Positions 3,959 to 26,570 of a stretch of DNA of 29,523 bases are shown in pieces. This stretch comes from a virus. The translations under genes were made by a program, and so were the position numbers. The stretch lies in UHGV virus genome UHGV-1542943, one strand, 5' to 3'. A model generated the notes under the pieces. The model saw only the letters and a program-made list of their open reading frames with translations. It had not been told where the DNA came from and did not search any database. How positions within the stretch are numbered: position 1 is the stretch's first letter; every line of letters starts with the position of its first letter.

Positions 3959-4776
3959 ACGTACATATCCTGTTTGCGTGCCCACTCAGGGCGTTTAATA
4001 ATTTCCACGCCGCCCCATTCATCGCTGATGCGGCATTCGTGATAGGTATTCAGATCCCGGCGGAACAGAGCGTGCCCGGCATCGACATCCGGCGCATCCA
4101 GCCCGAACACGCGTACCGGATACCGACCACAATCAATGCTTTCGCTCACGGCAAGAAAGAAAAAACCATGCGGCTGACCAGTAACCCTCATTGCGCCTTC
4201 GCGGTACATTGCGTCCTGCACGTGGTAGCGGAATTCCTCGATGTGACGTGCAAAACGGTCCATATCTGCAACCTTTTTCACGTCGACGATCACGTTGTGC
4301 TCGTTCAGCCATTTGTCTGGACGAATTCGGCACAACTCACCCGTCTCTTCATCGTTCCAGTACATTGATGCTTCGCAGTAACCAGGTGCTTCCAGCATCC
4401 AGCGTGCCGCCGGGTGAGCCATTGCGCTATCACGCATCAGCTCCAGTTTCCGCCACTGCTCGGCATCAAGTACCGTAATCCCCATATCCGCTACATCACG
4501 AAGAAATGCTTCTTCGTCAGCTTTACCTTGTTTCGTCCGACGATCGAACTTCGGTGAAACAATGAAGCGTTTGTCGAATTCTCCAGGCTCCAGAAGCAGA
4601 CAGTGCAATGCGGTTCCCATATCCAGTGCAGACTTTTTCTCTTCGTCTTCTGGTGCTGCCTGAACCCATTTAAGAAGCGCCGGATTCTTGGCAACCATGT
4701 CCAGTTGCGACTTACTCACGCCGTCACCGGCGTGGTAGTCTTCGTTGCTGATGTCGAAATAAATTCCCGGTTTCAT
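3955..4776 (-). CDS. PD-(D/E)XK exonuclease (RecE C-terminal / YqaJ-like recombination exonuclease)
   Basis: 273 aa; motif ..CRIRPDKWLNEHNVIVDVKKV (D..D-x-K) plus upstream His and Glu residues typical of PDDEXK recombination exonucleases; adjacent to RecT. Confidence 0.75.
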   Translation of the reverse strand: MKPGIYFDISNEDYHAGDGVSKSQLDMVAKNPALLKWVQAAPEDEEKKSALDMGTALHCLLLEPGEFDKRFIVSPKFDRRTKQGKADEEAFLRDVADMGITVLDAEQWRKLELMRDSAMAHPAARWMLEAPGYCEASMYWNDEETGELCRIRPDKWLNEHNVIVDVKKVADMDRFARHIEEFRYHVQDAMYREGAMRVTGQPHGFFFLAVSESIDCGRYPVRVFGLDAPDVDAGHALFRRDLNTYHECRISDEWGGVEIIKRPEWARKQDMYV

Positions 4777-22655: not shown

Positions 22656-23507
22656 ATGAAAAAAATAAATTTGTTTTTTGGCATAGTGCTTTCAATAGTC
22701 TCTGTAAATCCTACAGCTGCCAGTTCATTGCAATGCAATAAGGATAACTTTGATGCATGCAAAACGTGTGAACAATTATCAAAGGCTATCGACTTAAAAG
22801 AACCTAATCGTGGCGATTACTATAGAGGGGCTTTATGGAATGGGCTTTACGCCTCTTATGTAATTAATTGCCCTGTGGTTGCTGAGAAGTTACTGAGCCA
22901 TGGTGCTATACCATCATATGGCGGATATATGGGGTCTATGGGGGCGGTTCTGACAGGAAAATGGCCTCATAACAATGAATCAATAAATCTTTCATGGGCA
23001 GATTTGCTTATAAAACATGGATTTGATGTTAATAGGCATACGGGGAATTATAAATCAGCTACTGAAGTATGGGCTATAGATAAAAAACAGATTGAATATA
23101 AGTCAGTTTTTGACAAGTTAATTCAATCCAGCGAAGTAAAACCACTCGATCCTTCAAGAAATTTAGAATGGTGTGCGTCTGAAGGGTATCGCTCAGTTGT
23201 CGTTTATTCCCTTAACTCATGTATAGAAAATGCTATAAAACGTTTGGATGATGGTGTTTCTTCAGCGTCTGATATTTCATCAGCAGCCGTAAATTCCTGT
23301 ACTAGCGATGTAGAAAATTTCAATAAGCATTTGGTATGCAAAGCAGCTGTTAAAGAAAACTCTGATAAAGAGAGAAGCAACGTTTACCAGTTATTAACCA
23401 GTGATAGTCAAATGAATAAAAATGTTATTGATATGCTGAAGGAAAGAAATATTGAAACGGTTCTTGAATTTAGAGCTGAAAATCGATCAGCGAAAACTGC
23501 ACAGTGA
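22656..23507 (+). CDS. AT-rich cargo gene encoding a secreted/periplasmic Cys-containing protein (283 aa)
   Basis: Sec-type signal peptide MKKINLFFGIVLSIVSVNPTAAS; ATG 2 nt after the stop of the 1129-aa gene; markedly AT-rich; followed by a terminator. Confidence 0.6.
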   Translation: MKKINLFFGIVLSIVSVNPTAASSLQCNKDNFDACKTCEQLSKAIDLKEPNRGDYYRGALWNGLYASYVINCPVVAEKLLSHGAIPSYGGYMGSMGAVLTGKWPHNNESINLSWADLLIKHGFDVNRHTGNYKSATEVWAIDKKQIEYKSVFDKLIQSSEVKPLDPSRNLEWCASEGYRSVVVYSLNSCIENAIKRLDDGVSSASDISSAAVNSCTSDVENFNKHLVCKAAVKENSDKERSNVYQLLTSDSQMNKNVIDMLKERNIETVLEFRAENRSAKTAQ

Positions 23508-23510
23508 TCA

Positions 23511-23538
23511 AACAGGCCGCTTTCGCGGCCTTGTTTTT
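23511..23538 (+). terminator. Rho-independent terminator ending the late operon
   Basis: GGCCGC-tttc-GCGGCC followed by TTGTTTTT. Confidence 0.7.
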
Positions 23539-23575
23539 AACGAATGCCACCGCCACCCGGGCGGGAATCCGCAGA

Positions 23576-23600
23576 CACAAAAAAGCCCGCAACGCGGGCT
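23576..23600 (-). terminator. Rho-independent terminator for the minus-strand toxin operon
   Basis: GCCCGC-gttg-GCGGGC followed by TTTTTT on the minus strand, immediately after the stop at 23600-23602. Confidence 0.65.
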
Positions 23601-24137
23601 TATTCCTTCCATTTATCAGAAAAAAGATCTTCTTCTAAAGGCATTGGTTCTGTTTTTGTTTTCTGAAAGAATTGATAACTGATAGTGATTGCTGCCTCTT
23701 TAAACTCTTCTTGCTCAGTTATGTTGTGGGCATCTGCGTCAACAAAAAACATAACCAGCGCATCACGATTGTGATTTACCGAATAAACTAAAAAGCAATC
23801 ACTTGTTGGTATGCATTTTACTTGCACAGACGCTATATGCATCCCAAGATGATTTTTTACCAGTGTGTTTTTTATCACTATCTTCTGGAATATAGTCTTG
23901 GTTATCGACATGAGTATGCCTGACATTTAGTTTAAGCATTTCTGTCGGACGAGCAAATGCAGCATCTTTACCAAGAGATGGATGGTATCCCGTTTTCCAA
24001 TACTGGGTAAAGGCATCAGATACTTTCTTCAGCTCAAGATCAGATGCACAAAGGGCCGAGAAATTTTGCGTATGCAATACTCGACCCTTATATCTGACAA
24101 TTTGATTTTTATCATTCTGCGACGCAGACGAACTCAT
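23600..24137 (-). pseudogene. YafO-like toxin gene split across two overlapping frames (23799-24137 and 23600-23926)
   Basis: Frame A (MSSSASQ...LGKDAAFARPTEMLKLNVRHTHV) and frame B (..SDCFLVYSVNHNRDALVMFFV..) each resemble consecutive parts of E. coli YafO as recalled from memory (..FGRDALY...VAHIHL..., ..AHLVYCQGAFDEQAWLL..). The 128-nt overlap contains two T6/A6 homopolymer tracts (23853-23858, 23868-23873). Confidence 0.4.
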
Positions 24138-24291
24138 AATTTTCCTTATTGTTACGAGAATCAAAGAAAGCGCGGGATACGCGACTTGCGTGATCTTTTG
24201 TCATAGTAACTTTTACGTACTCTACGCTTCCATTGAAAGAACGTCTTGCGGCAGCTTGCGCTCTACGCATCTGCAATTTTTCGTTTCGCAT
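24112..24291 (-). CDS. Small basic protein (59 aa) upstream of and overlapping the toxin-like gene; candidate antitoxin
   Basis: MRNEKLQMRRAQAAARRSFNGSVEYVKVTMTKDHASRVSRAFF...; its stop overlaps the toxin start by 26 nt, and the toxin ATG has an AAGGAAAA RBS. Not similar to YafN by eye. Confidence 0.4.
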   Translation of the reverse strand: MRNEKLQMRRAQAAARRSFNGSVEYVKVTMTKDHASRVSRAFFDSRNNKENYEFVCVAE

Positions 24292-24351
24292 GACATTACC
24301 TCATATCTCATAAGTTCATTACACGGATTAATAAAAATGAAACCAATCCGT

Positions 24352-24366
24352 TTACCCTTGAGGTAA
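24352..24366. promoter_or_regulatory. Operator TTACCCTTGAGGTAA (perfect)
   Basis: Between the antirepressor gene end and the toxin operon start. Confidence 0.6.
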
Positions 24367-24438
24367 TAGTACGCTATTCACCCACAGTCTGCAATCTGTA
24401 CAGAATTATTTAAAGGCACATCCCTGTGCCGCCGCCCG

Positions 24439-25149
24439 TCAGAAGAACCCAGCCTTGTCGTTGATGTACTCCGCGTGCGTCTGGATATCACGCAGGCATT
24501 TGCTCACACCGACGATGTAGCAGAACATGGTGGTCAGTTCCGCCGCCGCGCCCGATACGTCATGCCCGTCTTCCTGTAACTGGTTCAGCAAATTCATCAG
24601 CAGTGAGTTCTCCGTCAGGCCGAGAACACCAGACGGCGAGTGAATCAGGCTGCGGTAGCCGGGCTTCAGTGGGGCACTGTAGGTTTTGTTCTCTATCTTC
24701 ATCGCCTGCATCACTGCTGATGCTGTGGCGTTTGCAACCTGGTCGGCAACCATCTTTATGCGTTCTTCCTGCGGGAGCGAGTTTTTAATGTAACTTCCGG
24801 TGCGGCGGATCTGAGGAAGAACCTCACCTGTAACCCATTTACGAAAGCGGTAGGGGATAGTGCCTGGTGTCACTGCGTCGCGACAGCGGAGGATCAGTGT
24901 GTAGAGGCCTGACTCGGAGATGATGTTGATCTCTTTTACTCGGCTGTCAAAAATTGCACGATGTTCATGCCCTATGTTGAACATAGACCTTTCATCATCA
25001 TCCAGTTTTTCAAGTGCTTGGGTGACGTTTTGGATACGCAGCGCACTACAAACGTCTTGGGCTACAAACCATGGTTGGCCATCGATAATGATGGAACGGA
25101 TAGGGTTAACAGATTCAAATTTGAAGATGGCAGTTTGAGCATTAGCCAT
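24439..25149 (-). CDS. Bro-N domain antirepressor (Ant-like)
   Basis: N-terminal ..FKFESVNPIRSIIIDGQPWFVAQDVCSALRIQNVTQALEKLDDDE is a classic Bro-N signature; C-terminal antirepressor-type domain; ATG at 25149 with a GGAG RBS. Confidence 0.8.
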   Translation of the reverse strand: MANAQTAIFKFESVNPIRSIIIDGQPWFVAQDVCSALRIQNVTQALEKLDDDERSMFNIGHEHRAIFDSRVKEINIISESGLYTLILRCRDAVTPGTIPYRFRKWVTGEVLPQIRRTGSYIKNSLPQEERIKMVADQVANATASAVMQAMKIENKTYSAPLKPGYRSLIHSPSGVLGLTENSLLMNLLNQLQEDGHDVSGAAAELTTMFCYIVGVSKCLRDIQTHAEYINDKAGFF

Positions 25150-25418
25150 GGTGGTTATCTCCACTTAGTGATTTTAATCACCACCGCAACGCCAATTACT
25201 GGTGGTGAACTGGACAAGGTTGGCGTACCGGCCTAAGTGGTACCGGCGTCCTTTCGGACCCCTGCCCAGCCCACCATAATTCGGATATAGCTGTGCTTAA
25301 CGCATAAAAAAAACACGTCTGGCGTGGTATGCGCCACTTAGTAACTCGGGACGCCAATCCCGGCACTGGATTTTGCCAGTACCCGATTACTATGGCACAA
25401 GAGGAGTGCGATGTAAAT

Positions 25419-25546: not shown

Positions 25547-26275
25547 ATGGAAGTTTTCTGGATAGTTGTTGGTGTGGTTGCGGTGATTATTTACGTTATC
25601 AACCAGAACAAGACTAAGATCTCTGATCGTACGGTCGTTAATCATAACAAAACGATAAAGACCGAAGATGGGGAGATAACGATTAATCGTACACAGGTGA
25701 TAGAACACACCTCTACTCAGTTTCAAAAAACTGGAGGTAATGCGCCTAATATTTCCGCACCTCCTGCTTATGATAGTGCGGTAATCCAGACATATTATAA
25801 ACAGCAGGAGTTAGCAAAAGAGAGGCAACTGATTCAGCCAAAGCCGTTTACAGCTGAGCTTCCACCTGGAGTGTCAACGCGTCCGGCATATCATGGAAGA
25901 TTCCCTGGTGATGACATATCGTCTCAGTCATCTAAAAAAGCACCTCAGGCAGTATCAGAGCCAGCAAGAATACCTTCTGTATCGCCGCCAAAAGAAGAAT
26001 CAGCTAACAGAGTTTCAAGTGGTAGCAAGCAGTGCTTGCGATGCAGAATAAACCTACCATATGAAAAATTCAGGAAATCGTCAAAAAATCCAGATGGATT
26101 GACTAAGTGGTGTGCAAGGTGTCTCGATGGCCCAAAGAATACACGCCATATGAAGTGGTGCCCAATTTGTAATGTCCGCAGAAAACGAACCAGCTTTTAC
26201 CCTAATAATCAAAATGCGGACGGATTAATGGCATGGTGCAAAACGTGCTGGGATGAGCACAAAGCGAAACGATAG
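25547..26275 (+). CDS. Membrane-anchored protein with two C-terminal C4 zinc-ribbon-like units
   Basis: N-terminal TM helix MEVFWIVVGVVAVIIYVI, low-complexity linker, then CLRC..(PDGLTKW)CARC..(KW)CPIC..(DGLMAW)CKTC; GAGG RBS. Confidence 0.55.
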   Translation: MEVFWIVVGVVAVIIYVINQNKTKISDRTVVNHNKTIKTEDGEITINRTQVIEHTSTQFQKTGGNAPNISAPPAYDSAVIQTYYKQQELAKERQLIQPKPFTAELPPGVSTRPAYHGRFPGDDISSQSSKKAPQAVSEPARIPSVSPPKEESANRVSSGSKQCLRCRINLPYEKFRKSSKNPDGLTKWCARCLDGPKNTRHMKWCPICNVRRKRTSFYPNNQNADGLMAWCKTCWDEHKAKR

Positions 26276-26297: not shown

Positions 26298-26570
26298 TTA
26301 CCGGGTTTGTTTTCGTAATTGTTCGGCACAATAGTCGAGATGTGTTTGCAGATCCTGCATAGACATCTGTGAGCTGGTGACGTAGTTAATCAGTGCAGTC
26401 AGTTCGGCAAGTGGGCCATCGACATTAAATCCATCCTTATCGAGATCCCGGAGTAATTTCATCAAGTGCGATCCCTCCACCAGTGACCTGACGCCTCCCG
26501 GCGTGTGAATCCTTTCGGTAAATCCGTCTTCCAGTGGATAGTGATACTGCTGCATCTTAATCTTCTCCAT
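26298..26570 (-). CDS. Stand-alone paralog of the antirepressor C-terminal domain (85-90 aa)
   Basis: ..RIHTPGGVRSLVEGSHLMKLLRDLDKDGFNVDGPLAELTALINYV..DLQTHLDY aligns with Ant ..LIHSPSGVLGLTENSLLMNLLNQLQEDGHDVSGAAAELTTMFCYI..DIQTHAEY at roughly 45% identity by eye. ATG at 26555 has a GGAGAAG RBS. Confidence 0.55.
   Translation of the reverse strand: MEKIKMQQYHYPLEDGFTERIHTPGGVRSLVEGSHLMKLLRDLDKDGFNVDGPLAELTALINYVTSSQMSMQDLQTHLDYCAEQLRKQTR

Follow-up and report, generated by a model that had tools for sequence, protein, structure and literature searches.

An 8-bp deletion probably breaks the toxin gene of a YafO-like, toxin-antitoxin-like prophage cassette and leaves its putative antitoxin gene intact

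The virus genome UHGV-1542943, 29,523 nucleotides long (the window), carries a YafO-like gene in two pieces that lie in different reading frames, and the question that this locus raises is what parted the frames and whether a working protein could still be made. The preliminary description recognized a toxin-antitoxin-like operon whose YafO-family toxin was split at homopolymer tracts, and it offered three possible outcomes: a toxin that is inactivated with its antitoxin orphaned, a toxin that is phase-variable, or one that is expressed by slippage. Our analysis favors the first of these. With a probability of roughly three in four, what the prophage carries here is a type II toxin-antitoxin-like cassette whose toxin has been broken by a private 8-bp deletion and whose putative antitoxin has been retained. 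The cassette as such is already known, with annotations in public genome and phage entries; what is new is the broken allele and the uncharacterized small partner.

An ORF scan of the window places every ORF of the operon on the minus strand. The upstream gene (24291-24112), undamaged in the window, encodes a basic protein of 59 aa that belongs to phrog_6685 and is a putative antitoxin or regulator. A count of its residues gives 12 K/R against 7 D/E, for a net charge of about +5, the N-terminal half being strongly basic, and a GAGG Shine-Dalgarno sequence lies at 24302-24299. The 3' end of this ORF shares 26 nt with the start of the toxin gene. The ORF that follows spans 24164-23799 (121 aa), with a probable true start at ATG 24137, which is preceded by an AAGGA Shine-Dalgarno sequence and would give a product of 112 aa. 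A third ORF of 108 aa spans 23926-23600 in the +1 frame relative to the preceding toxin ORF, and the 112-aa and 108-aa ORFs have a stretch of 128 nt (23799-23926) in common. Within this overlap are two A6 tracts (T6 on the plus strand) at 23868-23873 and 23853-23858. The small basic ORF, the two overlapping frames and both tracts are thus as originally described. The same is true of the placement between virion genes and the antirepressor: on one side the cassette is flanked by genes for internal virion proteins and an ORF of 283 aa with no assigned function, and on the other by a Bro-N/Ant antirepressor gene on the minus strand, followed by the tailspike gene.

Taken separately, the two halves fall below threshold against the Pfam family PF13957 (YafO_toxin), with 15.9 and 13.0 bits (E 0.014 and 0.12), and their matches lie collinearly on the profile, at positions 3-40 and 48-88. 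Restoring 8 nt yields a single ORF of 181 aa that scores 26.0 bits, a borderline result given the gathering cutoff of 25, and natural intact alleles score between 23.4 and 26.3 bits. Among near-full-length representatives of the family, 32 of 59 match PF13957 (best E 5e-29). A profile built from the 59 members (alignment A6) aligns with E. coli K-12 YafO over 122 columns with an hhalign probability of 97.7 % (E 2.1e-12); pairwise BLASTP between the toxin and K-12 YafO gave nothing significant. Searched as a profile against 1.84 billion cluster representatives, the family alignment returned only 70 proteins at E <= 1e-3, and six His/Arg positions are invariant within the family (H52, R63, H74, H76, R127 and H140). 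The structural model of the toxin is of moderate confidence, with residues 78-117, the site of the deletion, at pLDDT below 50. Its fold matches are mostly RelE, HigB, YoeB and YafQ toxins, and it has the RelE-like microbial RNase fold. Other searches were uninformative: NCBIfam gave no meaningful match for the three ORFs, a PDB sequence search with the toxin profile returned chance-level matches only, and Foldseek against BFVD returned 0 matches at E <= 0.001. Judged by these profile comparisons, the intact protein is a long-form member of the YafO/RelE superfamily, which upholds the original assignment to a YafO-type toxin-antitoxin-like operon, as does the conservation of the gene pair. YafO acts as a RelE-like mRNA interferase that depends on translation, an activity shown for the K-12 protein only (PMC2814082), and by homology the intact protein here presumably acts as a ribosome-dependent mRNA endonuclease.

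The break itself does not lie where it was first placed. In a three-way alignment with intact relatives (A1), the window shows an 8-bp gap, GGAAAAAT, in the toxin gene; relatives read GATGCAT-GGAAAAAT-ATAGCG (some have GGAAAAAA) and the window reads GATGCAT-ATAGCG. The junction maps to 23836-23839 on the minus strand, where a 2-bp AT/AT microhomology leaves the placement ambiguous, and the missing bases can equally be written as ATGGAAAA or TGGAAAAA. It falls in codons 100-103, within A-rich, low-complexity surroundings and about 14 nt downstream (in the direction of the gene) of the second A6 tract. Both tracts are unchanged between the window and its intact relatives, so the split was wrongly attributed to them. 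The 5' part of the gene (23799-24137) now consists of 100 native codons, 12 out-of-frame codons and a stop, which together specify the 112-aa product. The 3' part (23600-23836) holds native residues 104-181 and the stop, now in the +1 frame, and the first 30 codons of the 108-aa ORF (23926-23837) are toxin codons read out of frame.

Relatives of the cassette are plentiful and whole. At an identity of at least 98 % it is present in 61 of 5426 complete E. coli genomes (megablast, query 23500-24450), and the E. coli records listed carry a single 546-nt gene annotated as 'type II toxin-antitoxin system YafO family toxin'. One uninterrupted toxin ORF of about 180 aa is present in each of the 43 IMG/VR loci; no related locus was found among the GTDB species representatives. 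The two frames are therefore one gene in every relative examined, and nowhere among them a pair of separate genes. A 120-nt query centered on the junction and spanning both tracts matched 63 E. coli complete-genome records, all of which contain the 8 bases absent from the window; each match covers 128 nt at 93.0-93.8 % identity, which corresponds to the 8-base gap and at most one mismatch, and the tract lengths are equal throughout.

The frameshift costs the toxin model two core strands (E119-124 and E129-134) and its helices 139-163, together with P113, Y121, N124, R127, D128, H140 and E144, which are invariant in the family alignment, and a working toxin is not expected from the window allele. 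The sequence of events that we propose is as follows. A sigma-70-type promoter, its -10/+1 region overlapped by a palindrome, would drive a bicistronic mRNA encoding the 59-aa putative antitoxin and autorepressor and the 181-aa YafO/RelE-superfamily protein, with a terminator closing the operon. A deletion between AT microhomologies would then have shifted the frame, giving a 112-aa stub that lacks the second half of the RelE-like fold and a C-terminal coding part with neither a start nor a ribosome-binding site of its own, so that the toxin would be dead. Promoter, palindrome and small gene would be left untouched, amounting to an orphaned putative antitoxin, and the first of the three outcomes originally envisaged is the one that fits an 8-bp frameshift beside an intact small gene.

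Two other accounts of the split gene need to be weighed against this one. It is highly improbable that the toxin is phase-variable or recoded, whether through DNA or RNA-polymerase slippage at the A6 tracts or through +1 ribosomal frameshifting in the overlap. Such a scheme draws on the second ORF being in the +1 frame and on the effect of losing one A in either tract (a -1 slip), which rejoins the frames into a 178-aa protein scoring 25.8 bits on PF13957; it draws also on an independent broken allele, P0022, which is recorded in two Logan assemblies and has 1-nt losses in two A tracts. However, the frames were parted by an 8-bp deletion outside the tracts, the homologs are all single ORFs, and tract length differs in none of the 63 complete-genome records, nor in the 30 E. 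coli-type loci tabulated, all of which are A6/A6. Homologs at 70-80 % protein identity spell the same lysine codons GACAAAGAT, GGAAAGAAA and GGTAAGAAG, interrupting the tracts synonymously, and the A6 tracts are therefore not selected features. The rejoined product would, moreover, have 6-11 residues replaced, among them W98 and W101, neither of which varies in the family alignment. For transcriptional slippage to be efficient in E. coli, runs of about nine or more are needed, longer than A6, and the 128-nt overlap shows no evident prfB-like +1 signal. We thus reject phase variation and programmed slippage alike, and with them the two remaining outcomes of the preliminary description. P0022 and a further damaged copy, P0040, show repeated decay of the toxin gene, or mis-sequencing, and not programmed switching. 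The chief alternative is that the gap may be an assembly or sequencing artefact of the metagenome scaffold, the phage in the sample having an intact 181-aa gene. The junction and the truncated product are known solely from one scaffold: the exact 112-aa product is on record from a single contig (ENA ERZ28577339, COST17-1_SAMEA4545440_METAG-scaffold_634), which is the window's own source, its fetched sequence being an exact substring of the window with identical coordinates. The junction is absent from the 5426 E. coli genomes and gave 0 exact matches in GTDB species representatives, JGI metagenome contigs and IMG/VR. The nearest intact relatives differ by only 3 substitutions and the 8-bp gap across 881 nt, and the deletion is therefore very recent or else an artefact; the A-rich, low-complexity setting of the gap would also suit an error. 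Against this, short-read and consensus errors are mostly substitutions or 1-nt homopolymer errors, of which an 8-bp loss is atypical, and the AT/AT microhomology at the flanks is what a deletion by genuine replication slippage would leave. Toxin-antitoxin loci often acquire mutations that inactivate the toxin, and the broken alleles P0022 and P0040 exist. On balance we regard an artefact as unlikely and a genuine deletion as the better explanation.

A different objection concerns not the deletion but the nature of the cassette. The 181-aa protein might be a non-toxic RelE-fold accessory of the phage, such as a moron product that binds RNA or the ribosome, and the small basic protein its transcriptional regulator or an unrelated co-translated peptide. 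The borderline PF13957 score is in keeping with this, as are two segments that K-12 YafO lacks, one of about 18 residues at the N-terminus and an inserted one of about 20-30. The partner shows no similarity to known antitoxins, PADLOC has no model matching the toxin, the small ORF or their neighbors, and in the literature on YafO and prophages, YafO-like proteins and TL-2011b we found no paper testing a long-form member experimentally. Yet the comparison of profiles links the protein strongly to YafO, toxins of the RelE, HigB, YoeB and YafQ kinds make up most of the fold matches, and six His/Arg positions do not vary within the family. An overlapping small upstream gene and a promoter palindrome form the canonical type II layout, which is kept in two unrelated phage contexts, and the large gene has been broken independently in other alleles. 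We consider a non-toxic accessory improbable, and keep to the reading of a toxin-antitoxin-like cassette, in which family membership and architecture suggest toxicity, neutralization by the small protein and operator binding.

The small upstream gene deserves attention of its own. The exact sequence of the 59-aa protein occurs on at least 1000 contigs, and orthologs of 55-60 aa overlap the toxin start by 17-26 nt in 43 of 43 IMG/VR loci. Across nine diverged sequences pN/pS lies between 0.2 and 0.68, and the differences fall mainly at third codon positions (715, with 368 at first and 401 at second positions). To judge from these comparisons, it is a real protein-coding gene under purifying selection. 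The gene lacks annotation by the NCBI pipeline in both E. coli chromosomes inspected, and in TL-2011b it is listed as hypothetical gp45. Positional equivalents accompany distant toxin homologs as well, as upstream ORFs of 55, 63, 69 or 84 aa, most of which overlap the toxin start by 8-23 nt. Overall, an ORF of 55-84 aa overlapping the toxin start by 8-26 nt is found in 47 of 49 loci checked, in addition to the window; at one exception, L007, a 63-aa ORF lies adjacent to the toxin gene without overlap. By its position and company the 59-aa protein is a putative antitoxin and autorepressor.

Its ancestry is less readily placed. A relationship to YafN was considered and rejected, with BLASTP giving no alignment and hhalign a probability of 0.09 %; an apparent C-terminal alignment of the 59-aa family with YafN in MAFFT was discarded, as hhalign detects no homology. 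Neither a Phd/YefM domain nor any other Pfam domain is significant in the protein, a PDB search with the small-protein profile gave chance-level matches only and no relative of solved structure, and hhalign detected no homology between the 59-aa family and the 63-aa partners of the siphovirus homologs. The AF2 model, an N-terminal helix with a mostly disordered chain at pLDDT 54, is uninformative.

Regulatory signals were sought in the upstream regions of nine diverged loci (alignment A9), where mean column identity is 51 % and the Shine-Dalgarno/start region and a palindrome stand out as conserved. The palindrome, ATTACC-N5-GGTAAA at 24351-24367, is strandless and is a candidate operator over the -10/+1 region. 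Its ATTACC and GGTAA are invariant in 9 of 9 loci, the most distant at about 65 % DNA identity, with neighboring columns about 50 % identical. A -10-like hexamer, TACTAT, is placed on the minus strand at 24366-24371 by its conserved position, the sequence being TAATAT in most diverged relatives. A spacer of 17 nt separates it from a -35-like hexamer, TTGCAG (24389-24394, minus strand), proposed on conservation only: TTGnnn stands 17 nt upstream of the -10 hexamer in 8 of the 9 aligned loci, and ATGCCT in the ninth, L005. A generic promoter scan scored no promoter at the cassette, the -35-like hexamer being below its threshold. The palindrome occupies the position expected of an autoregulatory operator and may serve as one. 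A second inverted repeat, TACACGGATT / AATCCGTTTA (24320-24354, strandless), lies in the 5' leader, and the close E. coli relatives in alignment A1 have it unaltered. A role as core operator is unlikely for it, since it falls in an indel region, occurs only in the E. coli lineage and has not been kept in the diverged loci. At the other end, an intrinsic terminator, AAGCCCGC-GTT-GCGGGCTT followed by TTTTTG, occupies 23601-23578 on the minus strand and begins inside the toxin stop codon; Rfam shows no RNA family within the operon. The claim that the operon has its own operator and terminator is thus borne out for the terminator, and for the operator reduces to inverted repeats upstream, of which the palindrome is the candidate.

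The gene pair is found in two phage types, an epsilon15/phiV10/TL-2011b-like podovirus and a siphovirus, and in the latter two distant pairs sit between a tail chaperone-like gene and the tape-measure gene. Because it is kept in such differing contexts, the pair appears to move as a unit between phage types in a moron-like manner, and it may have a role in prophage maintenance or phage exclusion. A broader idea, which we offer tentatively and hold to be possible rather than probable, is that phrog_6685 and its positional equivalents of 55-84 aa form an undescribed family of antitoxins and autorepressors serving a phage-restricted, long-form YafO clade (phrog_1651). The two genes would then be a moron that travels between the immunity regions of podoviruses and the tail modules of siphoviruses and acts in prophage addiction or phage exclusion, and the window allele would be a natural toxin-null, antitoxin-only derivative. 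If this is true, such an allele could shield its host from related cassettes. For the window itself the finding adds a further decayed toxin gene, or perhaps just an error of assembly, and removes the phase-variation and recoding reading. Wider value lies only in the intact cassette, with its uncharacterized 59-aa partner and conserved promoter palindrome, as a possible new antitoxin family and a possible prophage defence or addiction module.

Comparison with known systems places the cassette at some distance from its structural relatives and very near to annotated phage genes. Sequence identity between the toxin and HigB2 (5mje), HigB1 (7nbu), RelE (2khe), YoeB (2a6q) and YafQ (4q2u) is 3-14 %, and its extra segments are without counterpart in RelE/HigB-type toxins; the gene order of higBA also differs from the antitoxin-first order seen here (PMC2814082). 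A further comparison is with YafN-YafO of E. coli K-12 (dinB-yafNOP), a type II toxin-antitoxin system whose YafO belongs to PF13957. The toxins are homologous at the profile level and share the motifs F..Y...G..P..FG(K/R)D, H-x-H and T(S/N)D..L(V/I)Y and a late His, and in both systems an antitoxin-like gene lies upstream and the toxin gene downstream. The toxin here is 181 aa long, whereas K-12 YafO has 132; some 18 of the additional residues are N-terminal, and the insertion of 20-30 residues (at about residues 78-117) is where the deletion falls. The partner here is a basic 59-aa protein that is not YafN-like and is without a Phd/YefM domain, the cassette resides on prophages whereas yafNO of K-12 belongs to the SOS-regulated dinB operon, and the window toxin is frameshifted, unlike K-12 YafO. 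Much closer are gp45/gp44 of phage TL-2011b (YP_007001996.1 / YP_007001995.1), an annotated orthologous pair at 98 % DNA identity, and the equivalent intact pairs in about 60 complete E. coli genomes (e.g., WP_001555612.1 and WP_032214330.1). Some relatives have an extra 162-nt gene for a 'transmembrane anchored protein' downstream of the toxin, which is absent from the window. The TL-2011b and E. coli copies likewise sit in an epsilon15/phiV10-like prophage, with virion genes on one side and the Bro-N antirepressor gene on the other, and their toxin genes are intact at 546 nt, the window's differing from them by its missing 8 bp.

Many relatives carry an additional 162-nt gene immediately 3' of the YafO-like toxin gene, annotated as a 53-aa 'putative transmembrane anchored protein' and found, for example, at 1538-1699 of locus L001 and at 4139-4300 of locus L056, both from other genomes. 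A segment of about 200 bp that includes this gene is missing from the window and from some relatives (e.g., locus L002). More distant homologs of the toxin were seen in two further loci, at 3817-4537 of L006 and 3751-4471 of L007, both in the 45-51% identity range and each with a 63-aa ORF upstream. These homologs lie in a siphovirus tail module with a DUF6246 gene on one side and the tape-measure gene on the other, an uncommon insertion site for a moron resembling a toxin-antitoxin (TA) pair.

Damage to this cassette, in which the toxin gene follows a small basic ORF, was also seen in two independent alleles known from protein records. The first (P0022, 114 aa, from two Logan assemblies) derives from a toxin gene with 1-nt losses in two A runs, and in the second (P0040, 86 aa, from NCBI) a frameshift has fused the small ORF to the toxin start. 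These alleles reflect either recurrent decay or else homopolymer sequencing errors. In two duck E. coli strains (NZ_CP079771.1 / NZ_CP079768.1; matches H52 and H54) the cassette occurs in the chromosome and again in a 41,027-bp record deposited as a plasmid, which is probably this same prophage in excised or circular form.

In the window, a 283-aa ORF (phrog_6118; 22656-23507, plus strand) with a hydrophobic, signal-like N-terminus and numerous cysteines separates the last of the internal virion protein genes from the TA cassette and looks like a further moron-type cargo gene. Flanked by the antirepressor and the tailspike are a 242-aa ORF (phrog_6762; 25547-26275, plus strand), whose C-terminal matches are to Lar-like and endonuclease VII-like zinc-finger families, and a 90-aa ORF (phrog_450; 26298-26570, minus strand) similar to the C-terminal domain of Ant. 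Separately, a tRNA gene (14131-14204, minus strand; Rfam RF00005, 73 bits) is located within the phage structural region.

Immediately 5' of the Bro-N/Ant antirepressor gene (24439-25164, minus strand), and on the same strand, are gathering-level Rfam matches to C4 antisense RNA (25198-25281; RF01695, 66 bits) and to isrK (25308-25382; RF01394, 58.6 bits). This arrangement suggests that the antirepressor of this epsilon15-like prophage is under C4 RNA control in the style of P1/P7.
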